From Candidatus Kerfeldbacteria bacterium (GTDB lineage: Bacteria > Patescibacteriota > Patescibacteriia > UBA9570 > XYC2-FULL-38-9), in the NCBI GenBank assembly GCA_016182555.1, contig JACPGJ010000007.1:128053-192052 (forward strand): DNA of 64,000 nt. The letters are read 5' to 3'. Positions 27,222-49,100 of the stretch are shown one piece after another. The position numbers and the translations under genes were made by a program. The notes under the pieces are model-generated. The model ran no database searches and had not been told where the DNA came from. It saw only the letters and a program-made list of their open reading frames with translations. The first letter of the stretch is position 1, and every line of letters starts with the position of its first letter.

Positions 27222-27223
27222 AA

Positions 27224-27556
27224 TTATCCAAAAATCTTTTTTCGCAACACACCATCGTCATGCAGATACTGGTCCTGAAACAATTGTCGCTGACGCTCCG
27301 CTTCGGTCGCGCTACATTCTCCGCGTTCTTCTTGCCAATCAATACGATAGAGTAACAGTGCATATAACGCCATCATCGCTGCGAGCACCGCTTCTCCCGC
27401 TTCCTCTATTTTGGTTTGTGGTGCTAGAGTATTCGCCACCTGTTGTAATTGTTCGGTCTTCTCACGCAACGCTGCCCGTACACGCTCTATCTCTTGGTCA
27501 ATAGCAACACCAGAATCCAACGATGCATGTTGATGTTCAATAACAAGATTATCCAT
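27224..27556 (-). CDS. small coiled-coil hypothetical protein, T4SS-cluster-associated
   Basis: 110 aa, helical. Tightly packed between neighbours on the same strand. Confidence 0.35.
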   Translation of the reverse strand: MDNLVIEHQHASLDSGVAIDQEIERVRAALREKTEQLQQVANTLAPQTKIEEAGEAVLAAMMALYALLLYRIDWQEERGECSATEAERQRQLFQDQYLHDDGVLRKKIFG

Positions 27557-28177: not shown

Positions 28178-28198
28178 ACATGCTATCTATTATCGCAA

Positions 28199-30109: not shown

Positions 30110-30114
30110 AGTGA

Positions 30115-30846
30115 TTACTGAATAGAGGTATCAATTTGCATCTGCGTCATATCTTCTATCCGACGTTTCTGTTTGGTGACCGGATTATAGGTATTATAAT
30201 ACAACTCAATCAATGCTTGTGTGTCCAAAATTTGTGTTTGCAAACTAATCGATTGTAATCCACTAATGACCACACTCAAACGACGCGCCATTTCTACTTT
30301 ATATTGTGCTAATTGGTCTTCATGGAGCTTCACAATGCTCGCCGGTGAAATAGTTTCCTGCAACCGCGACCAAAAATTTTTCTTTTTATTCGATGTCGGT
30401 GAAAATGGCACTATCACATAAAATTTCTTATCCATAATATCAGCTTCTTCCACTAATTTACTCACGAATGAACGATAAGAAAGCGTTTGTTTGCGCAACA
30501 GCTCATTCTCGTGCTGCCGCGCGAGGAGTTGCAACTTATCTAAATATTTTTCAATGTTGAGCTTTCTGGATTGAATCACCACTTGCAATGGAAAATCAAT
30601 GGTATTTAAAAACGATACATACCCTTGAATAATAGCGGTTTGCTCATCTTCAGATTTCAATGCAAAATTCAAACTCGAGACAAGAATAACTGTCCGCAGT
30701 GTTCCATCTTTCATAATCACAATGTCATCACGAATTTCGGCAAATGGCAGATGCTGCTGTGCAGATGGGAGCTGGCCGTTTTTTTTCTTCACCTGGCGAA
30801 CCGGCCGTTTTTTAATTTGTTTGATTGGTTTATTTTTTTTGCTCAT
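30115..30846 (-). CDS. T4SS-associated protein resembling the extreme N-terminal segment of Gram-positive VirB4 ATPases (possible split virB4, 5' part)
   Basis: 243 aa. Lys-rich N-terminus, then DDIVIMKDGTLRTVILVSSLNFALKSEDEQTAIIQGYVSFLNTIDFPLQVVIQSRKLNIEKYL, a pattern I associate with VirB4 N-termini. TAA stop at 30115-30117, 5 nt before the ATG of the VirB4 ORF, in a different frame. Confidence 0.45.
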   Translation of the reverse strand: MSKKNKPIKQIKKRPVRQVKKKNGQLPSAQQHLPFAEIRDDIVIMKDGTLRTVILVSSLNFALKSEDEQTAIIQGYVSFLNTIDFPLQVVIQSRKLNIEKYLDKLQLLARQHENELLRKQTLSYRSFVSKLVEEADIMDKKFYVIVPFSPTSNKKKNFWSRLQETISPASIVKLHEDQLAQYKVEMARRLSVVISGLQSISLQTQILDTQALIELYYNTYNPVTKQKRRIEDMTQMQIDTSIQ

Positions 30847-30862
30847 ACCTCAACAAATGAAA

Positions 30863-31390
30863 TTAACGTTGCAACAAATTACTCCCTCCGACCGGAGCCG
30901 ATGATGCAGATGCTCCCCCGCCTCCTCCACTCGCCACAACTTTACTGGTTTTTGGTACGTTCTTCCCGGCACGCAATACATCTTCTGTTGCATACATTCC
31001 TCCGGTATCCACCATCAACGACATCGCTGCTAAATGCGATTGCGTAACCTCTTTCTGAATCGACTGCGCTTGCGTTGAGACAGCTGGTGTTGTTGCTTGC
31101 TGTTCTGAATAGGGAATGCGCGCCCAAAGTTTCAACCGTGGTCGGCGTAATGTTTGTACTAAATTTAATACGACATAGTGCATAGATTGCCCATTCACTT
31201 TTGCAAATGCCATTCCCCCGCCAATCATCACCGTTAACACCAGTGCCGGAATAAATAATACCAAAGATAAAATAGAATACCACAAAAATGCCACACCCAG
31301 AGTAATCAAAATAATCACAAATTGACGAGCAGAAATCGGACCAATAATTTTGGATTCAACTTCGATAAATTGTGGTACAACAAATTGCAT
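30863..31390 (-). CDS. small two-TM protein, candidate VirB3/PrgI-like T4SS component
   Basis: 175 aa. Two adjacent TM helices (FVIILITLGVAFLWYSILSLVLFIPALVLTVMIGGGMAF). Located directly upstream of the VirB4-type genes, as VirB3 is in canonical clusters. Confidence 0.4.
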   Translation of the reverse strand: MQFVVPQFIEVESKIIGPISARQFVIILITLGVAFLWYSILSLVLFIPALVLTVMIGGGMAFAKVNGQSMHYVVLNLVQTLRRPRLKLWARIPYSEQQATTPAVSTQAQSIQKEVTQSHLAAMSLMVDTGGMYATEDVLRAGKNVPKTSKVVASGGGGGASASSAPVGGSNLLQR

Positions 31391-31411
31391 ATCGTACGTG
31401 TAGTGTAGCAG

Positions 31412-33403
31412 TTAATAACGAAGCTGGCGATTCAAATCGGAGATGGCATCAAATTCCGCTTGCATGAGCGTGTCTTTTCCGCTTTGCGCCCATTGACGAA
31501 TAATCTCTTCCACTGGCACTGTTTTTTCTAAACTTTCTTTTCCAATAGATAAATACAGTTGGTGCAGTGGACTCGCAAACCACGCTTGCATGCCTTCCGC
31601 TTTTTTCGATAACGATTCTTCTTCCAGTAAAGCCAGTTTATCAATAATATGTTTGGCGGCGTCTTGTGGTTGTTCAGCAAGGCGGCGGAAATCTTCCAGA
31701 TTCATATTTTGTAATTCTTCGAGTGGACCCATCACCACTGGCTGTGCGGCTTCTTGACTGTCATGCGAAAAAGATGCCCCCGATTGTGCTGCAGCAAATT
31801 GTCCCGGATGAACAATATCGGTCATGATTGATTTTTTATTTGTGTTATTCATATCCATTGTATCAAAAATAGGGTTCATATTGGCGAACATATCTTCGAC
31901 CATAATATGAGCACTTGCTTGTTCCTCCGCACGCTTGGCATCATGTTTTTTTTGACGGTCAATCTGTTCTTGCACCATGGCAAGAGTGGGGGCAAATATG
32001 TTTGAAGGTTGCGTTGTCTTCACCCGTTTAGTTTCTTTGCCGCCCTGCAAGGCTTGTTGATACAATTCATCAGCCGTGTGCAAAATGGTATCTACTTGTG
32101 CAGCGGGAATATTCACTCCCCCTTCTTGTGAAGGCCGGGTCAATGCATCGCGTGCCTCTGGTTTGCTGCGCACTCCCCGCAAATACGACACGACAATACT
32201 CAAAAACCGTTTTTCTAATTCCAGCGATTCAAATAACAATTTGTATTCACCTAACACATGTTGGGCGACCGTATGATATTGGTGATCGCTCAACAATAAT
32301 GGAGATTCAGCAACATCAGTAACAGCGGGGGTAGACACAACTGGCAGTGGAGGCACAGGCATTGGTGGGAGTGGTTGGGGTGTTGGAAGCTGAGGCAATG
32401 GGAGTGGCGAAGCTGGCGGCTGCACTGTTTTCTTTGGTGGAGGGGGGAGCGGCATCGGTGGCAGTGGAGGCACAGGAGCAACAGTCTTTTCTTCTCCAAT
32501 AACCACTGGTTGGGCATACATTTTTACCGCTTTCTTTACTTGTTTGGAAATAGGAAGCGGTTTGCCGTGGTCGTCTAACCCCGCCAAAAAACGCATAGCC
32601 TTTAACTCCGGCTCTGGTATGGGAACATGGGTATCTTCGACCACCCCCATATCAAAAAGATGCACCGTTCCGGTGACCGGGTCATCAAAATAAAACGTCG
32701 ATTCAGAACCTTCCGGTGTTTTAGAGGAGAGTGATAATTTATGGTCAAACTTTAACAAATGTTCAATGCGTTCTTTATCATCAGCGGACAGGGCTTGTAC
32801 ATTTTTACTGGAATTCATGTACTCCACAATCAACAACGGTTCTGGTTTACGGGTCGCTAAAAATTCTTTCCAATCGTGAAGCCAGCTGGCGATACTTGGT
32901 TCCACTGTCGTTGTCCCAATGGTGATATCTGTTTTACCAATATGTGCAGTCGACCGTGACAATGCTTCACGATATTTCTGCTTTACCACATCACGCTCAC
33001 CATAATCATCAATAATCAACAACCGACGTTTCAATTTGCGCAAAATCTCTTCGAAGTCTTTTTTAAATAGCCCTTCTCCATGGCGTGAAAGAACATTTTC
33101 CACTTCCGTTGGCGCTAAATCACCAATCACAAACCATTTCGCTTCGGCCATCACCGTTTCTAATTCTGCATAGAGACCCGGTTGTTGTTTGTCTAGCTCC
33201 GGATACTTCGTGCTGATAAGCTTTTGAATACTATTCACCAAATGAAATACTGTATCATTATCGTTATCGTCCAACGCCGTATTCAAAGCATGAATGGCTT
33301 TATTGATTCCATCTGGTGTATTCAATTCAAAAGATTCCAGTGGTCGGGCAATGGGTGGTACGGCTGGTGCTGTTGGCATATTTTTTTGTATTGGTGTATC
33401 CAT
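31412..33403 (-). CDS. T4SS-cluster hypothetical protein with a central proline-rich tract
   Basis: 663 aa. No clear TM helix. Pro-rich region (PPLPPMPLPPPPKKTVQPPASPLPLPQLPTPQPLPPMPVPPLPV). Confidence 0.4.
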   Translation of the reverse strand: MDTPIQKNMPTAPAVPPIARPLESFELNTPDGINKAIHALNTALDDNDNDTVFHLVNSIQKLISTKYPELDKQQPGLYAELETVMAEAKWFVIGDLAPTEVENVLSRHGEGLFKKDFEEILRKLKRRLLIIDDYGERDVVKQKYREALSRSTAHIGKTDITIGTTTVEPSIASWLHDWKEFLATRKPEPLLIVEYMNSSKNVQALSADDKERIEHLLKFDHKLSLSSKTPEGSESTFYFDDPVTGTVHLFDMGVVEDTHVPIPEPELKAMRFLAGLDDHGKPLPISKQVKKAVKMYAQPVVIGEEKTVAPVPPLPPMPLPPPPKKTVQPPASPLPLPQLPTPQPLPPMPVPPLPVVSTPAVTDVAESPLLLSDHQYHTVAQHVLGEYKLLFESLELEKRFLSIVVSYLRGVRSKPEARDALTRPSQEGGVNIPAAQVDTILHTADELYQQALQGGKETKRVKTTQPSNIFAPTLAMVQEQIDRQKKHDAKRAEEQASAHIMVEDMFANMNPIFDTMDMNNTNKKSIMTDIVHPGQFAAAQSGASFSHDSQEAAQPVVMGPLEELQNMNLEDFRRLAEQPQDAAKHIIDKLALLEEESLSKKAEGMQAWFASPLHQLYLSIGKESLEKTVPVEEIIRQWAQSGKDTLMQAEFDAISDLNRQLRY

Positions 33404-33446
33404 AGGTTCAATGGCGCATGTAAATTATGGTTGTTGTCTACGGCGT

Positions 33447-36400
33447 TTATTCCTCGTCACTTATAATATTATTTTTTTTGTTTTTATTGGATTGAGTGAA
33501 GACTCCATCACGTACCGCGCGAATAAATTCTTCCGGTACACCTAAATTTTTTAAATTCTCTGGATCGGATGCATCGCTATGTTTAGCAATATAGTCACGA
33601 ATACGCTGACGCGTTAATTCTTTCAACCACCGGAAACCCGTTTCGTAGGAATAATCGTGGCCGTAGCGAATCAATTTCTGAATATCGCTTGGAGCGAGTG
33701 TTGTATCATTACCTTCTACGACACCAAAAACGGTATTGGCCACATTGCTTGCCTGCCGCCTGTTAATACCACCAGCTTGTAGAGCCGCCCGTTCATCCTT
33801 CCCGCGCGGACGCATCACTCCAGCAGCGTTTGAAACGTATGCCGCATCCAAATCAATATTGTCGTCAGTAAATTTTGCCACTAACTTCTGCATATAACGC
33901 ATAGATTCTTGATCACTCATTCCTAACTCCTCCTTTAAATGGTGGGTACGGAATGCTTCCATGGCGCCGTGTCCGGACCCTGCATGCGCGCGGGCATCTG
34001 CATTATCACTTTGACGCAAATACTGGTCAAAACCGAACCATAATAACCCGCCCGTTTCTTGCAAGCGTTTGTGCACCGCTTCGGCCAAATATCGATTTTT
34101 TTCTTTTTTGGCACGAGTTAAATAACCCATCAATTCTGTACCATCATCAATATTCTGCACTTGCTGGTACTGTTCATCTACCAATTTTTTGTGTTCAGGG
34201 TTACTCGTGTGTCGGCGTGCTTCCAATGTTGCAGACTCAGCCGTTGCGGCAACCAGTTGGCGTTCGCGTTCTGATAATTCATTATCTAAAATACTTCCTG
34301 CATTGTCGAAGAAATCAGCCGTTGCCGGATCAATAACATGCACGTCATGTTGATCATCATTACGTCGAACATACTCGTTTTTCACTTTATTCAATGAGCT
34401 ATTTAATGCTCCTGTTAAACCTAAACGTAGTGCCCCTGGCGCATAGGAGCCATGTTGCTTAAATAATTTTTTAGAATTAATACTTCCCTCACGCAACGCC
34501 TGTTGCACACGTTCAATTTGAGCTTGAAGAGCCGTCTTATCCTCCGGGGTAGTCGCTGCGGCTAAATCTGTTTTCAATTGTGCAATAAGATCTTGAATAA
34601 ACCGACGAACTGGCTCAATAGTCGTATCCAATCTGGTATCTGCGTCTGACATGACACCAGATCGCATATTTAATAAACTCCTTGTGTGCTCATCTTGTGA
34701 ACGATAATTTTTATTATAATCTTCCAAACGTTTCTTTTGATCATAGAGCCCCTCATCCAACTTATACATATCTGCTCCAAAACGGCGCTCTAACTCTGCA
34801 TCAATATCCGCCTCTGAAGGGGGTGGTGTTCCTGCTCTTTGCGCTGCAGCAGTTAATTCTGCGGCGAGTTCTGGTCTGGCTTTCTGTTTATTTTTTCTAA
34901 TCTTTCTTCTCATCAAAAGACCAAAAGAATTTTCTGCTTTATCGGCTAACCGTTTATATGTTCGTAGACTTAATGGATCATAATCTTCATATACCTTTAC
35001 GGCATCATCAGATGTCACCCCAATGCCAATGCCGGTCAAATTATCCATACTGGCAAATGCACCGTTCATATAGCCATGGCCCATAATATCACGATCCGCC
35101 ATCCCTCTCGCCCTCTTCTTAGATTCATTCAAAAAGACTTCCTGTTTTCGTTCGCTGGCTTTAGAAACGCCCGTTTTCAAATTCTTCCACGCTTTGCCAG
35201 GGTCGGAAAGCACGGTATTGGTAAAATGAGAAAAGTTATCGAGTGGTTGTAACACGTTGGAAGCAAATCGCGATGCACCACGTGCTCTAGCGGAACGATC
35301 GTCATCACTGGCAATGGCATCCAGCCGGCCACGGGCGCTTGACAATGCACGACCAGCCAGATATTGCTGATTGAGACGATAGCTGGCTTGACGAGCTGCA
35401 CCCAATAACTTCCCCGCTCCTTGGCGCACTTGGCTAAGCTGTTTCGTAAATTCTGTGGCCATCTCGTTCACCATTTTCAAAGACGCGGCTAACATCAACA
35501 TCATGACAATGTAATTCACAATGGTGGCCGGCGTTACGGCCCGCAACTGGCCGGTTTCTGGTGATTTCGAATACGTAGCAGGTAGCTGGGTTTGCACCTT
35601 TTCGTCAAACGCTCCATTTAAGGGTGACCCATTGTACCCATACGCCGTATCGGCCTGTGTGCCATACGCAATAGAAAGAGACAACCATAAGAAAAATGTA
35701 ATGAGGGGGCCAACGATGACATAACGCCCAAACATATCCCACCATTTTTGCGCAATACGGCTTTGGGTTTGGGGTAAAATGCGCCCAATCCAGGCAAGCG
35801 GAGAAATGGATATGAGAAACCAGAGCATGACGATGCGGAAAATGAGCGTCACCACATAGACCGTAAGAATAATGGAAAGCCCGGTTAACATGAAACCCGC
35901 AGCGGCAAAACCAGCAATCAAAAACGGTAACCCCTTAAGATCACTAACTACGGAATCTGAATCTCCTAAAGATAAATCCAATATTGATGCCGGGTTCAAA
36001 ACACCCAAAATATTTCGCCCAATCGCATTGCTAAACGAGCCGCCAAACGTGGCCATGGCAACTGTCGCCGCATCGGTGAATACGCCACAAATCGTACGGG
36101 AAAAATTGATTAAAATAGCCGCAATAATAAAATCAGGTAGCGTTTTTTTCCACGAATATTTTTCAATACGCAACACCGTACCTAAAGCGATGATGATAAG
36201 AATCATGGAGAAAAAAATGTTGCAAACATCACGCACCAGCTTCCATGACGTTACGACACCGGGGACATTCACAAATGCGGAGCGCGCATCTGCGCCGATG
36301 AATACGGATTGCCAGACATCGCCGTAGGGGTAGGTAATAACAATATCTAAAATAAAAGCGAGAATCATAGCAATAATCCCATTGATCATAATGGGAACAT

Positions 36401-36671
36401 AGTAAATAAATGCAAGAATCACGCGTGCCACTGAACCAATAATGCCGCTTGACTGCGCATATACCACCGGCACTCCGTTAAACGACATGATTATACCGGC
36501 AATACTGAGGCCAACGATACACACCCCGCCCCAATAAGCGGTTTTTTTGAAAATTCTGCGTGTTTTTTGTTGAGAGAGATAAAAAAATACCCGTACTTTT
36601 GGAAAATACTGGACTGTTTTGCTGCCTATCGTGCGGCAAAAATTGATAATACGCTGGTAAAACCGATTCAT
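33447..36671 (-). CDS. VirB6/TrbL-like polytopic T4SS channel protein with a large C-terminal coiled-coil domain
   Basis: 1074 aa. First ~400 aa contain at least 7 TM helices in a TrbL/VirB6-like arrangement. About 650 aa of charged, helical, TM-free sequence follows. Resembles Gram-positive PrgH/TcpH-type VirB6 proteins. Confidence 0.5.
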   Translation of the reverse strand: MNRFYQRIINFCRTIGSKTVQYFPKVRVFFYLSQQKTRRIFKKTAYWGGVCIVGLSIAGIIMSFNGVPVVYAQSSGIIGSVARVILAFIYYVPIMINGIIAMILAFILDIVITYPYGDVWQSVFIGADARSAFVNVPGVVTSWKLVRDVCNIFFSMILIIIALGTVLRIEKYSWKKTLPDFIIAAILINFSRTICGVFTDAATVAMATFGGSFSNAIGRNILGVLNPASILDLSLGDSDSVVSDLKGLPFLIAGFAAAGFMLTGLSIILTVYVVTLIFRIVMLWFLISISPLAWIGRILPQTQSRIAQKWWDMFGRYVIVGPLITFFLWLSLSIAYGTQADTAYGYNGSPLNGAFDEKVQTQLPATYSKSPETGQLRAVTPATIVNYIVMMLMLAASLKMVNEMATEFTKQLSQVRQGAGKLLGAARQASYRLNQQYLAGRALSSARGRLDAIASDDDRSARARGASRFASNVLQPLDNFSHFTNTVLSDPGKAWKNLKTGVSKASERKQEVFLNESKKRARGMADRDIMGHGYMNGAFASMDNLTGIGIGVTSDDAVKVYEDYDPLSLRTYKRLADKAENSFGLLMRRKIRKNKQKARPELAAELTAAAQRAGTPPPSEADIDAELERRFGADMYKLDEGLYDQKKRLEDYNKNYRSQDEHTRSLLNMRSGVMSDADTRLDTTIEPVRRFIQDLIAQLKTDLAAATTPEDKTALQAQIERVQQALREGSINSKKLFKQHGSYAPGALRLGLTGALNSSLNKVKNEYVRRNDDQHDVHVIDPATADFFDNAGSILDNELSERERQLVAATAESATLEARRHTSNPEHKKLVDEQYQQVQNIDDGTELMGYLTRAKKEKNRYLAEAVHKRLQETGGLLWFGFDQYLRQSDNADARAHAGSGHGAMEAFRTHHLKEELGMSDQESMRYMQKLVAKFTDDNIDLDAAYVSNAAGVMRPRGKDERAALQAGGINRRQASNVANTVFGVVEGNDTTLAPSDIQKLIRYGHDYSYETGFRWLKELTRQRIRDYIAKHSDASDPENLKNLGVPEEFIRAVRDGVFTQSNKNKKNNIISDEE

Positions 36672-36830: not shown

Positions 36831-37003
36831 AAAAATGGAAAACATGGAAAACCACCATGCAGTTGACAGCAAAAACAGTCTTAAGTATTATTATCGTAGA
36901 AGCATGCAGTAACAACTTACGGGACACCCTTAGTGTTCCCTTGGCCTTGCTGAGGCTTAAGCTGAGGATACATGTGGCCTGTAAGACGCTGCTTCAATAA
37001 AAT

Positions 37004-37033
37004 ACTCAATCCAGAACGGTTGAGTTTTTTGTT
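37004..37033 (+). terminator. weak candidate rho-independent terminator (plus-strand orientation)
   Basis: ACTCAA-tccagaacgg-TTGAGT followed by TTTTTTGTTT. Only a 6-bp stem with a 10-nt loop. Confidence 0.25.
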
Positions 37034-37047: not shown

Positions 37048-37692
37048 CTATAAAAAAAGCTGCTTTCCTTTCACTATTTTATTCTGCAAAATAGCATAAA
37101 ATTCTTTGCCGAGCGATTTATTGTTCACATACGCTGCTAACGCACCGGTAATCCAATCGGCGATTTGTATATTCACGTGTTGATCAGATTCGAGCATCTT
37201 CACAGCAATACGTGATCCGAGCGGTATACGTGAAAGTATTCTCGCATAAATAAATTTACAAAATTCTTGCTGATGCATATCTTTTAAATGACGTTTGTCA
37301 CAATAAATGTAGAGTTCTTTTGTTTCTATAGGAAAATATAAATCGATATTTTGCGTCACGATTTCCGCATAAAGATATCCACTTTTCAGCTGTCGTTTAT
37401 ACCAAAATTCCTGTGGGATATCTTTGTGAGAAACAATGGTATAGCAAATACGAATATCTAAATCCGCAATGTGCTGTATAGTTTTTAATCGTAATTTTTG
37501 ACTAATCTCACAATCATTGAACTTGATCTCCATTTTATAACGTCTATTTATTGGAAAATGTTTGCGTTGCCATGTATGAAAACTTTTGGCGGTTTGTTTT
37601 GGATTTGTTGTCGAAAAAGAACCAATAACAAAATATGGCTGTTGGGGATTTTTTGTTAATTGACCACTTTCATCTAAAAATATTGCGTACAT
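37048..37692 (-). CDS. DUF3800 family protein
   Basis: 214 aa. N-terminus MYAIFLDESGQL matches the Y-x-DESG start characteristic of DUF3800 (RNase H-like fold) proteins. Lies within an AT-rich segment. Confidence 0.55.
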   Translation of the reverse strand: MYAIFLDESGQLTKNPQQPYFVIGSFSTTNPKQTAKSFHTWQRKHFPINRRYKMEIKFNDCEISQKLRLKTIQHIADLDIRICYTIVSHKDIPQEFWYKRQLKSGYLYAEIVTQNIDLYFPIETKELYIYCDKRHLKDMHQQEFCKFIYARILSRIPLGSRIAVKMLESDQHVNIQIADWITGALAAYVNNKSLGKEFYAILQNKIVKGKQLFL

Positions 37693-37813: not shown

Positions 37814-38182
37814 TCACATTTTGAAGAGTACCCACTTTTCGTTTTTCTTTTTGAATGGTGGGAAGAGGCTGAGTACAAACGTTATCGGAATCATGAGGTA
37901 GTAATATTGCCATTCAACGTTTATTTGATACGCCACAATAACCGCACCAATCAATACGCAGATGATGAAATAATTCAATCTATTTTTGTATAACTCTTCG
38001 CGAATGCTCAGTATGTCGCTATTTTTACCATAAAAAGGAACAAGGAGAATAACCATCCAGAAACACGCTTGCAATGCCGTAAACAGATCACTATTATTTT
38101 TTTTATAGATAAAAATACATACGAGCAAATAGATGTTTGCGGCAATAAAACGCACTTTATTTCGTTGAATATTTTTCCACAT
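37814..38182 (-). CDS. small integral membrane protein (about 3 TM), immunity-protein-like
   Basis: 122 aa, AT-rich codon usage, three hydrophobic helices, last gene of the small-membrane-protein array. Confidence 0.35.
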   Translation of the reverse strand: MWKNIQRNKVRFIAANIYLLVCIFIYKKNNSDLFTALQACFWMVILLVPFYGKNSDILSIREELYKNRLNYFIICVLIGAVIVAYQINVEWQYYYLMIPITFVLSLFPPFKKKNEKWVLFKM

Positions 38183-38495
38183 ATCTTTTTTTTATTTCTT
38201 CAGCCAATGATGGGACTCTGCATTTTGAAAGAAAAAAACAGAAACCAATATATATAGCCACTAAGCGCAACCATGGATATTGTGGCAACAATACATGCAA
38301 TGCTTTTGCATACATGACCGCTATACCGACTCCAACGAATATCGCATACAACAAGAATTTTCTATGAAGTATAAAATATGCATGACGATTACTAAAGTGA
38401 TATATAAACCAACGTGTCTCATCTACCGCGAGCAAGAGTCCGACAATAACCATAATGATAGAAGCAATGGAGAAAATCATATATAACAATTTCAA
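38157..38495 (-). CDS. small integral membrane protein (about 3 TM), immunity-protein-like
   Basis: 112 aa, three hydrophobic helices, lysine-rich C-terminus. Confidence 0.35.
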   Translation of the reverse strand: MKLLYMIFSIASIIMVIVGLLLAVDETRWFIYHFSNRHAYFILHRKFLLYAIFVGVGIAVMYAKALHVLLPQYPWLRLVAIYIGFCFFLSKCRVPSLAEEIKKRYVEKYSTK

Positions 38496-38704
38496 ATACC
38501 CTGCTTATTTATTGAATTCATGCGTTTCTTTTTTTTCGATCGCCGTTTTAAATACTCATCAACTTTGCTTGAAATCCAAATAGTTGAGGATATCGTTAAA
38601 AATGTTTCCCAGTATGGTTGATCAGATGGTCTATGTAGCAGTGTTACCGCTACTGTCAGAATGGCTGAAATTATTAACAGCCATATTACATCCGCATATT
38701 TCAT
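38492..38704 (-). CDS. small membrane protein, paralog 4 of a tandem family with a conserved P-x-x-x-(Y/F)W(E/D)xFL core and a Lys-rich tail
   Basis: About 70 aa from the internal Met (MKYADVIWLLIISAILTVAVTLLHRPSDQPYWETFLTISSTIWISSK..KRRSKKKKR). The ORF track's longer form starts at 38788 and overlaps the upstream paralog. Confidence 0.4.
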   Translation of the reverse strand: MKYADVIWLLIISAILTVAVTLLHRPSDQPYWETFLTISSTIWISSKVDEYLKRRSKKKKRMNSINKQGI

Positions 38705-38712
38705 AATACAGA

Positions 38713-38910
38713 CTATTTCTTTTTGAAAAAATAATACAATTGCTGAGTAACGATCAATATAACCCCAAGAAAAATAAAATGCAGCCACCTATCCCAAAAA
38801 GAGATATTTGAACGTGGTTGGAATGTATATCGTGCAAATGCTAGTAACCCACTACTGGATAAAAACAGTAATAGCCAAAGTAAAAATTGATTCTTTTTAC
38901 TTTTCAACAT
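38713..38910 (-). CDS. small membrane protein, paralog 3 of the tandem family
   Basis: 65 aa: ..LLAFARYTFQPRSNISFWDRWLHFIFLGVILIV..FFKKK. Confidence 0.4.
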   Translation of the reverse strand: MLKSKKNQFLLWLLLFLSSSGLLAFARYTFQPRSNISFWDRWLHFIFLGVILIVTQQLYYFFKKK

Positions 38911-38982
38911 AGCGGGTAACGCTTAAACTTTCCATTTTAATATCTGCTTTAAAACTTCCAGAACCATCTCGCCACCACTATC

Positions 38983-39186
38983 TTATTTTGTATCTCTTTT
39001 CTTTTTACGAACTTTTTTTGACCGCTCAGAGAGAATCAACGTAATAGTTATCGCGGCAAAACCAATAAGAAACCGCTGTAAATAACTTGACCCTTCTGGT
39101 TGAATATAGGTAAGAACTCCGGCCAATATCGCACTGATTACAGCAATCAATAGAATGTCAGCAATTCGTTTATTTATATCCACCAT
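38983..39186 (-). CDS. small membrane protein, paralog 2 of the tandem family
   Basis: 67 aa: ..AVISAILAGVLTYIQPEGSSYLQRFLIGFAAITITLILSERSKKVRKKKRDTK. Confidence 0.45.
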   Translation of the reverse strand: MVDINKRIADILLIAVISAILAGVLTYIQPEGSSYLQRFLIGFAAITITLILSERSKKVRKKKRDTK

Positions 39187-39243
39187 TTTAATATCTGCTT
39201 CACAAGAACTTTAAATCAGGATCGACAGTAACAGATTCATATT

Positions 39244-39444
39244 TTACTTCTTCTTTTGCTGGTTTCTCTTAGAACGAATAAATGAAAGGACTAATACCAA
39301 TACAACACTCCCCCAAGTCAATAGAAATCTTTCCCAATAATTTGAACCCTCAGGTTTATCTATATATGTAGCAACTCCTGCCATGAATGCAGCGACCACT
39401 CCAGCAAGAATAGCCTCACTCAGGAATCCGATCATACCCACCAT
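39244..39444 (-). CDS. small membrane protein, paralog 1 of the tandem family
   Basis: About 67 aa from the internal Met: MVGMIGFLSEAILAGVVAAFMAGVATYIDKPEGSNYWERFLLTWGSVVLVLVLSFIRSKRNQQKKK. Clearly alignable with paralog 2. The track's longer ORF (to 39588) would overlap the upstream secreted-protein gene. Confidence 0.45.
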   Translation of the reverse strand: MVGMIGFLSEAILAGVVAAFMAGVATYIDKPEGSNYWERFLLTWGSVVLVLVLSFIRSKRNQQKKK

Positions 39445-40505
39445 TTTAATAAGAACTTTGTCGTGTTTACAATCTGTTGTTTTATCCAATACTGTGCAGA
39501 ATTTGGTAAAACTTTGAACACCCCCATCGTGGCACCTGATATAGCGCATCCCCAAGCAGCTTGTTCTAATTTTTCTTTCCAATACCAATCATTTCTTTGT
39601 ATCGCCCACCGTACTGCATCAATACCAATACCACCAATAACCGTATTGACACAAGCACGAGCAGCTAAAACAATAGCAGTAGTTACTGCTGCTGGAATCC
39701 AAAAAGGATCTGCAGTAACAGGATATGAAATTCCTTCCACATTATGGAGAATATGTTGAGTAAGTGTTTGACCATCTGTGGTGAAATAAGTTTCAACATC
39801 ATTCCCAGCAGCATCTTTTGCCCAGGGAGTGGCAACCATGGCGATCGGTTCATTGTTTTCATCTACAACCACTGCTCCTCCATCTTCAGTCAGTTCAATG
39901 TGGCCGCCAGATGGCACGGTGACGGTATACGCATATTCTGTTGGTGCTTCGGGGTTATCAATAACCGTAAGCATACGCACACCACCTTCTACGTCCGCTT
40001 GTACGGCGTTTGCTGAACCATCTTTTGCCGGGTATGCAACAACACCGTCTGCGATTCTTTTTGCGTTTTTCGCTTCATCAGCATTGGGCAAGCCAATCTC
40101 AATCGTTGTGCCGTCTTCCGTACCCAATGTTACTCCATCTTCTGGATTTTTCGGAATATCAACAATTGTACCATCTTCTGTGGAAGTGATAATCGCTGAA
40201 TCTACATCGCGATCGACTACAATATCTTCAGAAGTTTCGAGTACACCAGAAAGACTTTCCAATGCCTCTTTCACCTCCGTTTTCGATACGTTCATTGAAT
40301 GATCCGTATCCGCTTGTTCGAGAACGGTAATTTCCGGCTCTGTTTCTAATGCTGTTGAATCTACCGGTTCCACAACAGCAGGTGATTCGTTTGTACCTTC
40401 CGCGCTCAATTCTTGCGCACGCACCAACTGCGGTGCAACGCTCATAAAAACAAATGAAAACACCATCGTACTCGAAAGCACTTTTGAGAAGACGCCCGTC
40501 CTCAT
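39432..40505 (-). CDS. secreted protein: signal peptide, acidic Thr/Glu/Asp-rich region, and a hydrophobic Trp/Gly-rich C-terminal domain (candidate membrane-active toxin or bacteriocin-like domain)
   Basis: 357 aa. Signal peptide (MVFSFVFMSVAPQLVRAQE). C-terminal ~110 aa (AVTTAIVLAARACVNTVIGGIGIDAVRWAIQRNDWYWKEKLEQAAWGCAISGATMGVFKVLPNSAQYWIKQQIVNTTKFLLKWWV). Immediately followed by the small membrane protein array. Confidence 0.45.
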   Translation of the reverse strand: MRTGVFSKVLSSTMVFSFVFMSVAPQLVRAQELSAEGTNESPAVVEPVDSTALETEPEITVLEQADTDHSMNVSKTEVKEALESLSGVLETSEDIVVDRDVDSAIITSTEDGTIVDIPKNPEDGVTLGTEDGTTIEIGLPNADEAKNAKRIADGVVAYPAKDGSANAVQADVEGGVRMLTVIDNPEAPTEYAYTVTVPSGGHIELTEDGGAVVVDENNEPIAMVATPWAKDAAGNDVETYFTTDGQTLTQHILHNVEGISYPVTADPFWIPAAVTTAIVLAARACVNTVIGGIGIDAVRWAIQRNDWYWKEKLEQAAWGCAISGATMGVFKVLPNSAQYWIKQQIVNTTKFLLKWWV

Positions 40506-40769
40506 AATTTTAAAATAAATGATTAAGTTACTTCTAGTGTATCACGTGCGTCCACCGCGTCAATATGCGACTTATCCACAATTATTTTATTATTTTTGTA
40601 GCCGTCTCTATTTCGCCAATTAACGAAATGCTTTTAACATTAACTCTTTTTCGACTTTTTTCTTAAAGATTTTTCCACCGCAGAGCCGTCGCTTACTGAT
40701 TCGTGAAATACAGCATTAACTCTTGTAAGAAATAATACCGTAGGATAAACTATGTGTTGACGCCCCTGT

Positions 40770-41968: not shown

Positions 41969-42163
41969 AGAGCTTGACAAAATGGATGTTTTGGGAGTAG
42001 GCTTGGGGTAGATTTGTGCAAAGTGTGCCTTGAAAGAGGTGTGCTTTGCACTTGAAAATATGCCCGTGTTTTTATTCGCGTCGTTTGCAAAGCCAGCCTA
42101 TGGTTGGTTTGGCAATGCAGCGACGCGGCTACAATCAATGGCCGGGACTTCAAACCGGCCGGT

Positions 42164-42169
42164 TAGGAG
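42164..42169 (+). promoter_or_regulatory. Shine-Dalgarno sequence (AGGAGG) for the Asp/Cys-repeat gene
   Basis: AGGAGG 5 nt upstream of the ATG at 42175 (MRNWLLVLTALLGG signal peptide). Confidence 0.6.
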
Positions 42170-42174
42170 GGGTT

Positions 42175-42933
42175 ATGCGGAACTGGCTGTTGGTGCTCAC
42201 CGCCCTCCTTGGGGGGTTGGTGAGCGGTGGTTTTTCGTCGGCGCTCGCGGCCGACGTAGACGGCGACGGGTTTTACGGAACCACAGAGTACTGTGGTTCC
42301 GATGACCAAAACTATTATTATTGGTGTGACTGCAACGACGACGACCCCGCCATCAATCCCGAGGCGACGGAAGATTGCGACGGCGTCGACAACGACTGCG
42401 ACGGCCAAGTCGACGAGGCCGGTGATGACGGTGATCTGGACGGCTTCACAGATGATCCGTGTAACGATACGGACGACTGCGATGACACGAATCCGTCCAT
42501 GAACCCCGGCGCGGTCGAATTCTGCGACAACGCGGATAACGATTGTGATGGGACCATCGATGAAGGGGTTACCGTAAAGTACTACGTGGACGCAGACGGA
42601 GATGGGGCTGGTGATGCGAACACCGACCCCGTAGAAGCCTGCGATGGGTATGGTCCCGCAGGCTATTCAATCGGAGGTGACTGCAACGATAGCAACTCCG
42701 ACATCCGTCCAGGAACTGTCGAAACAGTTTGCGACGACGGCATCGACAACAACTGCGATGGGACTATCGATGAAGACACCGAATACTGCCTGGATGAGGA
42801 CGAAGGTGGCCTCGGGGAGGTGATTCCTGGGGGATGTTCTACATCTCCCGGCGCGCCACCCACCCGAGGGTGGGGAATCCTCGGCCTCGTCGTCGGCATC
42901 CTCGTCGGCTTTCGCCGCAGCAGCACGCGCTGA
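42175..42933 (+). CDS. secreted Asp/Cys-rich repeat protein (MopE-like putative metal/calcium-binding CxDxDCDG repeats) with C-terminal TM anchor
   Basis: Signal peptide. Repeated motifs (CDCNDDDPAINPEATEDCDGVDNDCDGQVDE; CDDTNPSMNPGAVEFCDNADNDCDGTIDE; CNDSNSDIRPGTVETVCDDGIDNNCDGTIDE). C-terminal hydrophobic segment GWGILGLVVGILVGF plus basic tail. The ORF track start at 42046 is rejected for the SD-preceded Met at 42175. Confidence 0.55.
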   Translation: MRNWLLVLTALLGGLVSGGFSSALAADVDGDGFYGTTEYCGSDDQNYYYWCDCNDDDPAINPEATEDCDGVDNDCDGQVDEAGDDGDLDGFTDDPCNDTDDCDDTNPSMNPGAVEFCDNADNDCDGTIDEGVTVKYYVDADGDGAGDANTDPVEACDGYGPAGYSIGGDCNDSNSDIRPGTVETVCDDGIDNNCDGTIDEDTEYCLDEDEGGLGEVIPGGCSTSPGAPPTRGWGILGLVVGILVGFRRSSTR

Positions 42934-43090: not shown

Positions 43091-43124
43091 ATCACCCCGC
43101 TTTTTTGGCGGGGTGATTTTTTTA
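43091..43124. terminator. bidirectional rho-independent terminator between convergent genes
   Basis: AAAAATCACCCCGC-ttttttg-GCGGGGTGATTTTTTT: perfect 10-bp GC-rich stem with an A-run on one side and a T-run on the other. Sits between the stop of the 42175..42933 gene and the stop (43122-43124) of the giant gene. Confidence 0.65.
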
Positions 43125-46100
43125 TGGTTTTACGTAGATGGTCTGGGTGTATTCGTCATAGGAAGTACAATCGCCATAATCAGTACGTACATTGTCACCA
43201 TCGGCTTCACCACTATGGATATCGCCGCTACAGAAATCCCAATTATCTTGAATCTGTACTTTAATATGGAATTCACACGCATACCGACCGGTATCATCAT
43301 CCGCATTCGGGTGATAATTTTCTGCCGGATTTGTTGGGTCACAAGTGTACACATACGTATACGAATGGCCAGGAGTAGACGCCGCTTCCCAATAATCGGT
43401 TTGTGCATCATTGGTATTGAACACGCTATCATCAGTGGCTTTCCAATCGATTTGAATTTGTTGCACCGGTTCTTGGTCTGGGTCGCTAGAGGAATCAAAA
43501 CCCAATATTACTGTATCGCCACTATCAATTACTATGGGTTCATTTGTATGTGTGTTCACCGTCATATTACTAATGCTTGGGCGAACGGCGCAATATTCGC
43601 TATCGTCTGTGCGCGTATTATTTTCACACACATCCATAGTGTCTGGATCTAAGAAATCGAAGGAACCATTTTCAGTGAATGCGGTTGGGAAGGTATCGTC
43701 AATTTTATCATCTTGGACAAAAGACAATAAACCCTCATTTCGTTTTGTATATGTAGAATCTTGGTTTGCAAACCACACCGTACGGCCTTGCATATCGGCA
43801 AAAAGTAACCGGTAACGTTTCCAGGCAATACTGGCGGCCGCGTTCAACTGGTCTAAATACGTAGTGTAATCTGCACCGACTCCGGCTCCGGAGAGCAAAC
43901 CACCAAAATTTGAACCGGAAGAACTAGAGCCACTCTCCTGTTCTTCAACATCGAGAATGCCGTCGCCATCATCATCGGTATCTATACTATCTATCATACC
44001 ATCATCGTCGTCGTCCGTATCATTAATATCTGGAATACCGTCTCCATCGGTATCTGTATCCATATCGATAGTAGTTTCCTCACTTGTATCACAACCATCT
44101 GTGCTACACCGTGCAGCGCTAAATGTTCCCTGGGTACTGAGGCTCGCCGCTGCAGTGGCTGGAGCAGCAGTAGCAGTATACGAAGCACCCATTTCACAAG
44201 TCGAACCCGCACCAACAGCCGTACAATCATCATTGCTATCGCAGACAACCGCTTGGCCATTCGGGTCTTTGGAGCTACAGATACCGGCTACTCCTATCCA
44301 GAGTGAATCGTTGGTACATGCACTCAAGGCAGTGGTCGGGCTGTAGGCGGTAGCATAATCGTTTTGGCAGACCGTGGCATTACACGAACCAATACACGCA
44401 TACGGCAGCGCCGACCCTTCACTTTGGTTTAAGTACACAAATGGTAAATTATCCTCTGCCGAAGCAGTGAAGTACGATAAACCATTATTTTTAATACCAT
44501 CAATTTGGCTAGGTTGACTGCCATTGTTGTCGCCACGCAGTGAACCAAACAATGCGTTCACTCCACTCATACTATACGTGTACCCGACATCAGGAATTTG
44601 ATAACCGGTGCTGCCCGTCACGCGTTCTTGCCATGGTGTGGCTTCGGCTTGTTCCGTTGCGCCTTCAACCAGCAACAAACACGGTTCTTTTAAGTAATAG
44701 GTCCAGGTCACTCCCTTCATATCACCAACATCCCAGCGGCGGATACCATCCCAATAAAACAAATATACTGCATCGAGATAACCATCGTTGAAGTCGAAAT
44801 TGACTCCAACAATATTAGCACCACAAGGACTACCGTCGCTACCATCATCACAATCACCATCGTAGATGGTATCAAAAGTACTAGGCACCTCATAATCTGA
44901 ACTGTAGCTATAACGACTGAAGAAATAATGGGCGTCTAAGGAAACACCATCTAGTGTTTGTGAACCTGCGTCTTCGGTACCGCTAATAACACCTTCAATG
45001 CCGTCACCTGCCCACGCCCCTGAACAAGCACCGGTGGTACATGACTTTAAACCAGAGAAACTAAATGGATTCAACGGTACAGAAGAATCGATACCATCTT
45101 CGATACTTTGATCATTATATACCGTATACATATCGGAATTGAAACCCTTAATCAGAAAACCAGCATCTTTACCGGTGACAGCTTTCACAAAAACCACATC
45201 CATGTCATTCAAACCGCTTTTAATAGAATCTTGCGTACAAATAGAACTACCACACCATACCCCAGACTGAAAAGCCGTAGCGGCATCTTCATTATTATCA
45301 TTGATTTCTTCGCCATCAAACGCACCAGAAAATTCTTCATAACCAGATTGATATAGTCGCGCCGTATTTTCTGGTTCTGGCAATGTTTCAGTCGATGTTT
45401 CTAAATCGGCGGTATCAAAACTTGTTTTACCGATCAACCAGGAATTACTCTCATGCGCGTAATTCTTCCCACCATAATTCTCTGGTGTACCAATATCAAA
45501 TGAGATACTGTCAATTTCTGAAACATGCACCAACTTATCTACATTGGAAGCCGGAAAGCGGCGGAATTTTGCGGCTTCAAGATTATCCTCATCATAATCT
45601 CCATGTGGATCATCATCAATATGCAAATCCACGGAATTGATAATTTTGTAGCCTTCGGTCGTTACGGTAACGGTTTCATTGTTTACGGTGTAGGTTGAGG
45701 TGCCATTGCCCAAACATTGACTATCTCCACAATCGCTTTTATCCGTACAAATAGTCCCATCGTCTAAACATGCGCCTAAATTCGCATTGCCCTTTGCCAC
45801 CAAACAATGGTACACCGGATATTTTTGTGAATAGCGCACCGCGGTACCACTGGAATTCTTGGAAGACCCGGCCACCGGCCACCACGCTACACAACGGCTG
45901 GAATCATTCAAATCTTGCTGTAAACAATATCCTTTCCAACCGGTATAAATAACCCCACTGTCATCAATGTAATCACAAGACAGCGAAGAATCTTCGGGGT
46001 ACGCACGGCAAGATTGGCCAATTAACCAAGCGGCATTATCAGAGTTCGGGTTATGTTGTTTATTCACTTCTATCGCCGGCTTCAACGATACATTATCAAT

Positions 46101-49100
46101 TACAAATGCCGGGTTATTCGCATCATTATCTTCGCGGAAAAACAAAGTGGAAGAAGAGGCTGGATCAAATTTATTTTCAATGGTGATCGGGCCAAGCACA
46201 TAGTGTTCGTAACTCGTGCTGAAGGTGAAATTGGAAACACTTGTCTGAATATCGGAGCTTATGTCGGTTAAAATAGTACTGTAGCTACCAGATATATCGT
46301 ACATACTCCCACCAAATGTTGGAGTAATGTCATTATATGCATAAACCGATGCAGGCTTCGTACAAGATGATTGGCCGCTGTCGCCACATGCGCTATTTAA
46401 CTCTTCCGCGTCACTCGCGATTGCCGGGCTATCATTACCAAACACAATGCTATAGAGGGTGTATGGTGTTTTCTGGAATTCGGCAATAAAATTTGTTTCG
46501 TCTGTTGGGTCCCATGCCGATGCGGTTTCCTCATCTTCTGCGGTGTCCGAATCGATATAGGTATCTTGTTCCGGCACAGTATCGGTAAGCAACACAATAA
46601 ATTGACCGGCGCCGGAACGAAAATCAATAGTACTGGTACCCGCACTATAGGTAAATGTGTTGTCAGCGATATTTTTTAATGCCTGGTAATTGTACGCCGA
46701 ACCACTTTCGAGATGGCCTGCGATAAAGTTCATGGCGGTTTGGAATGTGCTTGCACTGCTGGTCGTACTGGTGGTAATACCGTTGGTTGCACCATAATCA
46801 GTGGAGGCGTCACCACTGTCATCATAATCGCTGAAATCTAAAATTGCTGGGGTGCGGCCACCACCGGTAGTGACAATCGACACCTGGTAATCGATACCCG
46901 AATCTTCCAACCCTTGCACAATCGCACTGGTATTTGTAGCAATATTCGAAATATACGTTGACATACTCCCAGAAGCATCTATCACAAATACCAAATCTGC
47001 CTTCGCGTGGCCGGTTTCAAAATAATCCACATTTTCGAAATCGCTATCATGGGTGATGCCGATTTGCATCAAATCTTGCTCGGTCACATAATCAATAAAC
47101 TGTGCGTCAAAAGACAAGGTATATTCTTGACCCGGAATAATAGAACTCAAATCCACCGCCAGACCTTCTTGTGCACCGGTGGTTTGTGGCTGTACATACA
47201 TAACATTGTTCAAATCGAGTGTGGAGGCTGCCACTGCTGAACCTAAAACATCAACATCGGGGTGTGTATAATCTAATCCATCCTGGTAATCAATAATCAC
47301 CATTTGCGCATCACTCAGTGTGGTCCAATGGTTCCCCCCCCATATTTCGGTGGTTGTACCATCATCATTAACCGTTTGGACTACATTCTCACACCACCCT
47401 TGTTCATATTCAATATCTTCAATATTCGTATCAGTGGCTTTCTCAGCCTGCGCATCATCGCTAGCTATCACTGTTTGTACCACACTGTCGGTTTCAAGCG
47501 TGCGACAATGGTAATCCAGTGTACAGCTCATACTCTTATCACGCTGGCGTTCTAATTTGTTTACCGTAGAAGCATCGTAAATCAAATTTGTATCGGTGTA
47601 GCTGCCAATACCATCACAAGACACCTCTTCAAAATCACCCATCGGAACTAATTCGTCTTTCGCGCCACCCAAACCACGTTCAGGAATCCAATCTTCGGGG
47701 TAGTAGCCGTATGTTATTGCGTCTTCACACGTTGCATCACTATCACACACATTACCGCTGTTTGCTCCACCAACGCACGTTAGGCTGCTATCATCACAAT
47801 ATGCCCCAACCCATTGGCCACCAACCGAAGCGAACCCAGAGACATCAGCAATTTTTGCTAAATCAGAGGTATCACCAGGCTCCGAAACTACACTCACATC
47901 ATCATCATAACCAAGGGAACTAGCATCTGCTTGATCGGCCCATTGTAAACATTCACCCGTTGATTCATTTCGTTTTTTACACGTACGAATTTCCAAACAC
48001 GTTCCACCATTTTCGCTATCGCTGGTGCTATTGGGGTCCACTAAGGCGCACGCTAACCACTGCGCACATTCACGATCATTACGCACTTTCAGGATGGTAT
48101 TTGCATCTGCCGTATTCGGGCGAGAATCACAATTCGTGGTTCTGGTCGCCGCGTTGTATTCGCAGGTGGTAAAACTATACGACGTCTGCGTCTTGTTTGC
48201 TGCCGTTTGTTCTTCTTCTACGCTTGAAAGGTAAGATAATGAATCGTTCGTCGCATCACGGAACGCCACACAACCACTATCAATATTCACCACACCGGCG
48301 CAGGTATTTTCTTCCGATTCTGGTGCGCCATCAACGGAACTACTGATATAGGTATATTCCTCTTGCGGTGCAAATTCTAAGTTATCAAAGTAGACGGCTG
48401 AAGAATCATTTCCAGTTTCAATAAACACTTTCACGAAATAGGCATCAGCGGGAAATTCATGAATAAGATTCCGACCGATGGTTGCTTCAAAGCGAACCCA
48501 TTGATTGGTTGGAATCGTATCATCTGTTTCTGCACGGTCAACGCCTTCGTACGCCGCAATCGCATAATCAGAAGCAACATCATTTTCTACCGCTATCTCT
48601 TCACCTTGCAAATCGTAATAGAACAACCCAATCGCAAACGGCGTATCGGCGTTAGTCAGATACACATCTCCGGTGAGCGTATACATTCCATTCACATCAA
48701 CCGTGACCGTGTCTGATGTTGCCATACAATGTGTTGCGCTGTTCGTATTGGTGGCGAGCTTAAACGACATACCTGCATCAAAACTTGGTTCAGCGTCGCC
48801 AGAGACACCAAACGAATTACACGCAATAGTGGTTTGCGAATCGGCGTTGGCAAAAAATTCATTGCTGGTACCCGAACTTACCGCACTCCAGTTATCGGGA
48901 ATACCATCTGGAGAACCATCTGTGATATTCGTATTACTTCCTACATCTGTATTCATATTCCCGTTCGTCACCAAAGATTCCGTATTTGGGTCGACATATA
49001 AGGTACAACCAGCAAAATCATCATTACACGAACCGACCCAACCGGAATTGTCATCAACATTAGCAGAACAGCGGTGAATCACACCATCAGCGCCGGTACA

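Follow-up and report, generated by a model that had tools for sequence, protein, structure and literature searches.

In a 64,000-nucleotide stretch of contig JACPGJ010000007.1 from a Candidatus Kerfeldbacteria bacterium (hereafter the window), seven genes stand head to tail on the minus strand at positions 37814-40505 (Table 1). The first encodes a protein of 357 residues, A357, and six genes for small membrane proteins, P1 to P4, M112 and M122, follow it. A preliminary description of this DNA, made from the letters alone, had suggested a toxin or bacteriocin with immunity genes, and had left the family unrecognised. Homology of the pro-domain now gives it a name. By its carrier, A357 is, as judged from homology, a bacteriocin precursor of the closticin 574 type, and its C-terminal tail is classed from its sequence as a new kind of peptide (class A) on that known carrier.

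Table 1. Features of the cassette, with positions in the window
Feature	Position	Strand	Basis or remark
A357, closticin-type bacteriocin preproprotein (by carrier homology)	39432-40505	-	Open reading frame, 357 aa plus stop codon
Signal peptide of A357, Sec-type, residues 1 to ~30 (MRTGVFSKVLSSTMVFSFVFMSVAPQLVRA, followed by QE)	40416-40505	-	Read from sequence
Acidic Cys-free pro-domain, residues ~70-266, beta-supersandwich fold	39708-40298	-	
Junction YPVTADP, residues 261-267, predicted Asp266-Pro267 processing site	39705-39725	-	Motif conservation
Predicted mature peptide, residues 267-357, tail class A	39435-39707	-	Composition and AlphaFold2 (AF2) model
P1, two-helix membrane protein	39244-39444	-	Open reading frame, 66 aa; exposed loop TYIDKPEGSNYWERF (predicted), C-terminal tail RSKRNQQKKK
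P2, P1 paralogue, GenBank HYV32_03295	38983-39186	-	Open reading frame, 67 aa
P3, two-helix membrane protein, KKK end	38713-38910	-	Open reading frame, 65 aa; listed for position and architecture
P4, divergent family member, loop HRPSDQPYWETF	38492-38704	-	70 aa; Lys-rich tail, weak second helix
M112, three-helix membrane protein	38157-38495	-	TTG start; or 107 aa from ATG at 38480
M122, three-helix membrane protein, last gene of the array	37814-38182	-	Open reading frame, 122 aa
Candidate sigma70-like promoter TTGACG-16-TACACT, extended TG	40536-40563	-	Consensus scan; ~30 nt upstream of the A357 start codon

Layout of the cassette and its products

The gene positions and the common strand given in the preliminary description agree with the list of open reading frames (ORFs). 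The last 13 nt of A357 are shared with the start of P1, and a relative, locus L014, has an identical overlap. M112 also overlaps the stop codon of P4. GenBank HYV32_03300, from a metagenome-assembled genome of Candidatus Kerfeldbacteria, matches A357 at 100% identity. Behind A357, 92% of positions 37814-39444 on one strand is taken up by six ORFs, each of at least 60 aa, whereas in 2000 Markov-1 randomisations the coverage was 10% on average and 62% at most. Thus, the small genes are not AT-rich noise, a possibility that the earlier description had itself raised. Promoter-like sites are not enriched over shuffled sequences in this region, so that the candidate promoter of Table 1 is weak evidence.

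A357 begins with a basic n-region and a hydrophobic core, and a VRA motif precedes the cleavage site read from the sequence; the AF2 model places a helix at residues 6-23. These features fit the signal peptide proposed earlier, and a comparable N-terminus is present in all A357 homologues. Residues 31-69 form an acidic linker to the pro-domain, whose fold resembles carbohydrate-associated supersandwich domains and the P1 domain of YidC. The whole pro-part (residues 31-266) has an isoelectric point of 4.05, a charge of -39 and no Cys. The C-terminal part from Pro267 has 91 aa (10.25 kDa), an isoelectric point of 9.64, a charge of +4.9, eight Trp and two Cys. In the AF2 model, built on an alignment of class-A tails, residues 268-357 form a bundle of four to five helices with a mean predicted local distance difference test score (pLDDT) of 75, and the first of these helices has membrane-spanning hydrophobicity (mean hydropathy 1.66). 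Among the 14-20 class-A tails compared, two Cys and two Trp never vary, and no other conserved polar residue looks catalytic. The amphipathic, Trp-rich C-terminal module of the earlier description holds, with one helix of membrane-grade hydrophobicity, and the module is also cationic (+5). Of the label 'Trp/Gly-rich', Trp holds (8 of 90 residues) and Gly does not (6 of 90); enrichment of Gly and Ala in the tails is found only family-wide. The length had also been put at ~110 aa; it is 90-91 aa, depending on whether the module starts after or at Pro267.

The small proteins differ in how firmly they can be related to each other. P1 and P2 match at E=2e-14 in BLASTP, and P2 matches L014_1 at E=5.6e-19. 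P4 is related to P1, P2 and homologues of theirs: it matches L050_1, WIN_1, L038_5 and WIN_2 with composition-adjusted E of ~3e-4 to 2e-3, and L050_1 is the first gene after another class-A tail. The preliminary description had counted four paralogues; significant E-values back P1, P2 and P4, whereas P3 has only the pattern in common with them. It had also placed a hydrophobic helix on either side of a shared core, which fits the two helices of P1-P3 and falls short in P4. The two further three-transmembrane proteins described beyond P4 are present as M112 (107-112 aa) and M122, each with three predicted helices, and no relationship between the two was detectable. For M112 no sequence homologue was found; proteins of 100-150 aa with two to four predicted membrane helices, like M112, close the arrays of L001, L002, L008 and L011, and M112 is probably, by its architecture, a further immunity-type gene. 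M122 weakly matches L014_3 (E=0.019), the third gene after the class-A precursor of L014.

The C-terminal tails of P1-P4 carry three to nine Lys/Arg each, which by the positive-inside rule puts the C-termini in the cytoplasm and the conserved loop outside. For P1 and P2 the predicted topology is accordingly N-in/C-in, with the Lys-rich tail cytoplasmic and the loop TYIDKPEGSNYWERF facing outward. This family is hardly traceable beyond its closest relatives. A word-based search with the four presumed paralogues, and then with an eight-sequence profile, returned the input proteins and one new protein only, so that the family is nearly absent from 5.8 billion proteins. Homologues of P1/P2 with the conserved loop motif were found in other genomes at L014, L004, L038 and P0128.

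The carrier family, its tails and cassette exchange

The main lead to the family came when annotated phage and plasmid records were searched by tblastn with the pro-domain as query. The search matched a 'putative closticin' of Paenibacillus phage BN12 (E=1e-15) and also hypothetical proteins on small plasmids of Clostridium butyricum, C. beijerinckii and Bacillus cereus. A357 aligns with the closticin-like gene product of C. beijerinckii plasmid NZ_LN908214.1 over residues 93-267 (BLASTP E=9e-16), and this alignment stops exactly at ADP. A profile of 119 homologues of the Candidate Phyla Radiation (CPR) type scores 93-117 bits on the precursors of B. cereus, C. beijerinckii, C. butyricum and phage BN12. 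Where A357 has YPVTADP, the Clostridium, Bacillus and phage precursors have FP[IV][VI]ADP, 82-83 aa before the C-terminus. In these Firmicute and phage proteins, an acidic Cys-free pro-region is followed by a cationic two-Cys peptide of 82-83 aa that starts at the Pro, and the gene adjoins one for a small membrane protein with one to four helices, as predicted by a crude hydropathy scan. In Clostridium this neighbour belongs to DUF6442 (PF20040), above the cutoff in C. beijerinckii (E=2.9e-09, 37.5 bits against 25) and only below it in C. butyricum (E=3.3e-04, 21.3 bits). No match to DUF6442 was found in P1-P4, M112 or M122.

These precursors are related to known bacteriocins. NZ_LN908214.1, a plasmid of 10,278 bp in C. 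beijerinckii DSM 6423, has been called pNF1, and its protein is homologous to the bacteriocin of C. butyricum MIYAIRI 588 and to closticin 574; its last 83 aa are the counterpart of the active peptides known from C. butyricum and C. tyrobutyricum (closticin 574) (PMC5894183). A closticin fragment from another paper (PMC7690686) aligns directly after ADPSAWQIT in the C. beijerinckii protein. Summaries of the work of Kemperman et al. (2003) on closticin 574 are given in PMC10888436 and PMC5894183. For this bacteriocin, the cell first makes a pre-protein of 309 aa that bears a general signal peptide of 27 aa, and processing yields an antimicrobial peptide of 82 aa (PMC10888436). The closticin type also occurs in full among the CPR relatives, where L019/P0045 has a true closticin-type mature peptide with 39% identity and the same Cys positions. 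Kemperman's abstract of 2003 is said to describe closticin as 'hydrolyzed at an Asp-Pro site'.

Five features of closticin-type precursors can be tested in A357. Four of them are present, namely the Sec signal, the homologous pro-region, the Asp-Pro junction and a cationic two-Cys C-terminal peptide of ~80-90 aa, and homology of the mature peptide is absent. Because the carrier features are there and the peptide homology is not, A357 is regarded as belonging to the carrier family, with a peptide that forms a class of its own. Annotation offers little guide to this family. When A357 and the small proteins were scanned with Pfam, NCBIfam and PADLOC, nothing exceeded the threshold, and a sequence search of the PDB with the family profile gave no match. 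The closticin-type precursor has neither a Pfam nor an NCBIfam model, and its relatives are annotated 'hypothetical'. In the literature, no paper was found that links closticin to CPR bacteria or to polymorphic toxins. On C. butyricum plasmid pCBU2 (L097, 900-1379), a gene for a membrane-anchored thioredoxin-family protein lies immediately upstream of the closticin-like precursor, and it is a plausible dedicated oxidase for the single disulfide of the peptide.

A search among the 5.8 billion proteins found at least 137 related clusters, mostly of Kerfeldbacteria and Saccharimonadales. For comparison, 62 distinct complete tails were extracted from a set of 13 genome loci and 79 metagenome loci. 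Homologues are conserved up to YPV[TV]ADP, a motif nearly invariant in 119 homologues and 78 loci, and become unalignable beyond it. After the junction, the tails fall into at least 15 unrelated sequence clusters, with lengths of 45-117 aa across modules. Their Cys count is even in 62 of 62 cases (two in 48, four in 13 and six in one), and the pro-domain is free of Cys in 115 of 116 aligned members. Even Cys counts in the tails and none in the pro-domain point to the tails as folded, disulfide-bonded extracellular modules on a Cys-free carrier.

Some tails belong to domains that already have a name. DUF2599 and DUF6973 occur as the post-ADP tails of several closticin-type precursors and are followed by membrane proteins (L033, L035, L051, L057, L069-L072, L074, L079-L081 and L090; P0018, P0048, P0050 and P0089). 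DUF2599 is expanded in mycobacteria (PMC3388012) and forms the C-terminal domain of Pseudomonas aeruginosa HvnA (PMC3510237). The position of the two domains behind the junction suggests that both are modules of a secreted effector or bacteriocin-like kind. The C-terminal half of the pro-domain, with the motif YPILADP, is also found inside large actinobacterial proteins encoded on a Rhodococcus plasmid (L094) and a Tsukamurella plasmid (L095), which are annotated with a TNT domain, a GH-E family nuclease, DUF4258 and DNRLRE. By its sequence, the pro-domain is thus likewise a building block of large polymorphic toxins. In the genome of the window, and outside the window itself, there is a second copy of the precursor, P0002 (GenBank HYV32_00220), which is 86% identical and ends at residue 238, before the junction, so that it has no tail.

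The genes behind the junction go with the tails. The first downstream ORF encodes a membrane protein of at most 170 aa in 47 of 56 loci, and several of the nine exceptions are errors of a crude ORF caller. Loci with the same tail cluster tend to have a similar first downstream protein (Fisher odds ratio 20, p=0.0016, from just 5 against 1 significant pairs). The clearest case is L014, whose tail is 61% identical to that of A357 and is followed by two P1/P2 homologues that carry TYIDRPQGSNYLQRF and LIDKPEGRTYLDRF; in the window as in L014, the class-A tail is paired with the P1/P2 family, and P1 is a probable cognate immunity protein on these sequence grounds. P1/P2-like genes also occur further down the arrays behind other tails in L004 and L038, where they behave, by analogy, as collected non-cognate immunity genes.

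Exchange is seen in a pair of Kerfeldbacteria precursors, P0003 (locus L014) and P0020 (locus L002). They are identical at 166 of 168 positions over residues 18-185, then ~50% identical up to ADP, and then continue into unrelated tails and downstream genes, while their DNA identity drops from ~90% to ~58% and to background. In the window, the GC content at third codon positions (GC3) falls from 0.37 to 0.28 at about A357 residue 185, and the tail and the array form an island of 33-37% GC inside a window of 44% GC. Orphan fragments of tails occur elsewhere. L002 has, behind its first membrane gene, a piece of tail with E=3e-13 to the tail of another locus, and L074 has an orphan fragment of its own DUF2599 tail; no orphan tail was found within the window. 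Three tandem closticin-type genes lie in L035 (1-5500 of a metagenome contig, GC content 0.28), with near-identical pro-domains over what the locus shows, the first copy being cut off by the contig end. They have three different tails, one of them DUF2599, and a set of small membrane genes of its own behind each. Some of the L035 membrane genes are duplicated between the units. In these comparisons the 3' part, which comprises the last third of the pro-domain, the tail and the membrane genes, behaves as an exchangeable cassette. Tails and small membrane proteins are linked, show a tendency to co-vary and move together in the exchanges.

Several other features of the window lie near the cassette. 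A monoderm-type type IV secretion cluster occupies 26070-36671 on the minus strand. It includes a PrgI-like gene (30863-31390), a VirB4 in what seem to be two pieces, an N-terminal one of 243 aa (30115-30846) and an ATPase of 636 aa (28199-30109), and proteins of 1074 aa and 663 aa without family matches. The idea that the A357 cassette is part of this cluster was rejected, as homologues stand in unrelated contexts, next to dnaB, uvrD or folD, and the cluster is not conserved beside them. Because the genomic context of the homologues varies, the type IV cluster is regarded as a neighbour and not a partner. Between the cluster and the cassette, an Rfam DUF3800-V RNA (36898-36996, plus strand, 62 bits) is flanked by a sigma70-like promoter that agrees with the consensus at 11 of 12 positions (36863-36891) and by a terminator-like hairpin (37004-37025), and makes a self-contained unit. 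A DUF3800 gene (37048-37692, minus strand) is convergent with this unit and also matches the PADLOC candidate defence family PDC-M04A. On the other side of A357, the region of 42046-42933 (plus strand) and 43122-53906 (minus strand) encodes a Cys-rich repeat protein of the MopE type with a membrane anchor at its C-terminus, at 55-57% GC against 44% for the window, and adjoining it a giant secreted protein of 3594 aa.

Proposed function and its alternatives

It is likely, on the evidence of sequence comparison, that A357 is a Sec-exported bacteriocin preproprotein and that the array behind it provides immunity. The homology of the pro-region, the hypervariable tails, the downstream membrane proteins and the cassette swaps all support this reading, which the preliminary description had arrived at without a family. 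It had also considered that the 357-aa protein might fall into a family unrelated to toxicity; the pro-region is instead homologous to bacteriocin precursors. For Sec export, cleavage, the disulfide, masking, membrane activity, immunity and the cells that are targeted, we infer the following course. After export, the signal peptide would be removed, and the acidic Cys-free pro-domain would probably hold the cationic peptide inactive by masking it. The cargo would be a cationic, Trp-rich, helical peptide of 91 aa stapled by a Cys285-Cys320 disulfide. An extracellular cut between Asp266 and Pro267 in YPVTADP would release it, and the freed peptide would insert into the membrane of related cells and permeabilise it. 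The producer would be immune because its small membrane proteins show their conserved loop on the outer face of the membrane and bind or exclude the peptide. P1 and P2 would be of the cognate type, and P4, P3, M112 and M122 would be diverged or collected extras.

A number of points weigh against this reading. In the literature no report was found that the downstream membrane proteins of closticin loci give immunity. A closticin-like peptide of Bacillus altitudinis was inactive in vitro against two indicator strains (PMC10888436). Between the class-A tail and the closticin mature peptide no homology was found (hhalign probability 0.2%), and comparison with solved structures gave no toxin or enzyme fold specifically like the A357 tail. 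The idea of the tail as a toxin module common to other carriers was rejected, since an HMMER scan of 1.84 billion proteins found no class-A tail outside the A357 family, the only other matches being two spurious repeat proteins. The first tail helix is hydrophobic enough to serve as a membrane anchor instead. In the array, the best E for homology of P3 is 0.003 without composition correction, and nothing is significant with it. The co-variation test rests on few significant pairs, because the small membrane proteins diverge fast.

The strongest alternative starts from the pro-domain. A357 may be a surface-displayed binding protein, for glycan binding or epibiont adhesion, with the beta-supersandwich as its working domain; the tail would then tether it to the cell, either docked on the loop that the small membrane proteins expose or through insertion of its first helix, and the anchor pair would co-evolve. 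Its likeness to carbohydrate-associated supersandwich domains and YidC P1, the membrane-spanning grade of the first tail helix and the attached life of CPR bacteria on host cells would suit such a role, and the predicted outward loop of P1/P2 suits binding as well as immunity. The inactive closticin-like peptide (PMC10888436) can also be read in this way. However, the A357 carrier has its homologues in precursors from which the C-terminal peptide has been purified as an active bacteriocin (PMC5894183). An anchor-grade hydrophobic segment is present in only 24 of the 62 tails, whereas every tail has paired Cys, and an anchor would not predict orphan tails, tandem copies with different tails or arrays with non-cognate membrane genes. 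The family is also rare and accessory, with ~137 clusters among 5.8 billion proteins. Taken together, we consider a binding protein unlikely.

It is still less probable, and to us quite doubtful, that the tail is an enzymatic or intracellularly acting polymorphic toxin domain whose entry is blocked by the membrane proteins. The actinobacterial proteins with TNT, GH-E nuclease or DUF4258 annotations that contain the C-terminal half of the pro-domain point that way, as do the globular Pfam domains DUF2599 and DUF6973 among the tails. The tail of A357, however, is a helical, cationic, Trp-rich peptide of 91 aa without catalytic-looking conserved residues and matches no enzyme fold, and immunity proteins against toxins of the enzymatic kind tend to be soluble, whereas the neighbours in this case are membrane proteins without exception.

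Last, A357 could be the sole gene, followed by chance non-coding ORFs in an AT-rich spacer; the low GC of the region, the near lack of database homologues for the small proteins and the apparent absence of P1 from the GenBank annotation would fit, but the ORF coverage of 92% against 10%, reached in 0 of 2000 randomisations, and the P1/P2 homologues at L014, L004, L038 and P0128, with synteny and start overlap kept in L014, make this extremely improbable, and for P1, P2 and P4 conservation of their sequences refutes it. As to the annotation, A357 and P2 have consecutive locus tags (HYV32_03300 and HYV32_03295), and P1 is called in another assembly of identical sequence (P0121).

The reading of A357 as a bacteriocin precursor with immunity genes can be widened to its whole family. 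We propose tentatively, as an idea with somewhat less than an even chance of being right, that the closticin-type pro-domain and the Asp-Pro junction are the general Sec-dependent carrier of a large, unrecognised superfamily of polymorphic bacteriocins across CPR bacteria, Actinobacteria, Firmicutes and their phages and plasmids. It would deliver at least 15 kinds of disulfide-stapled effectors, DUF2599 and DUF6973 among them, each matched by fast-evolving membrane immunity proteins, and in epibiotic CPR bacteria the cassettes would serve kin discrimination or competition for host cells. Closticin 574 has so far been treated as an odd, isolated clostridial bacteriocin. Its precursor scaffold would instead be widespread and modular, with killing peptides exchanged together with their membrane-protein partners, and would extend to the CPR bacteria, whose competitive weaponry is almost unknown. 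For DUF2599 and DUF6973 this opens a functional lead that can be tested, and it adds new classes of short peptides with candidate immunity genes. A single cassette of a bacteriocin and immunity genes is ordinary; the modular superfamily and its presence in ultrasmall epibionts are worth following.

Comparison with known systems

The nearest relatives by homology are closticin 574 of C. tyrobutyricum and the bacteriocins of C. butyricum MIYAIRI 588 and C. beijerinckii DSM 6423. Like A357, they have a Sec signal, an acidic Cys-free pro-domain of ~200 aa, a [FY]P[VI]xADP junction, a cationic two-Cys peptide of 82-91 aa and a small membrane protein downstream. However, the mature peptide in the window is unrelated to theirs and differs in Cys spacing, and a single downstream membrane gene in the closticin loci corresponds to six in the window, none of them DUF6442. 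The hosts also differ, a Firmicute against a CPR bacterium.

In organisation, the A357 family is similar to polymorphic toxin systems, a concept reportedly introduced by Zhang, Aravind and colleagues in 2012. Both have a conserved N-terminal carrier, a sharp junction motif and hypervariable C-terminal modules. Next to the module lies a gene of the immunity type, with a tendency to vary along with it. C-terminal fragments standing as orphans, exchange of cassettes by recombination and a lower GC content in the variable part are also common to them. The two differ in export and cargo. Polymorphic toxins use type V, type VI or type VII secretion systems, whereas the A357 type is predicted to use plain Sec and an Asp-Pro cut; their modules are mostly enzymes, whereas those of the A357 family are short disulfide-containing peptides (45-117 aa). 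Unlike polymorphic toxin modules, the tail class of the window is not common to other carrier types.

Two systems come closer in presumed action. In contact-dependent inhibition (CDI), the ionophore type of CdiA-CT has, like the A357 tail, a C-terminal bundle of ~4-5 helices able to span a membrane, and its CdiI immunity proteins are small and integral to the membrane, as proposed for P1-P4, and vary widely in sequence (~30% identity within a group). Toxins and immunity proteins diversify together in CDI (PMC11630599), and tails and downstream proteins tend to do so in the A357 family. In contrast to the window, CDI is Gram-negative, contact-dependent, exported by two-partner secretion and in need of inner-membrane receptor proteins (PMC11630599), and no sequence or significant fold similarity to the A357 tail was found. 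TspA of Staphylococcus aureus is a membrane-depolarising polymorphic toxin that is followed by strings of non-identical paralogous tsaI genes (bioRxiv 10.1101/443630; PMC9484751), and TspA/tsaI is, by analogy, the closest counterpart of the P1-P4 array. Unlike A357, TspA is a type VII secretion substrate with an LXG-like N-terminus, TsaI proteins are larger and polytopic, and neither has homology to proteins of the window. Judged by such analogy, the A357 system functionally most resembles the CDI ionophore toxins and TspA/tsaI.

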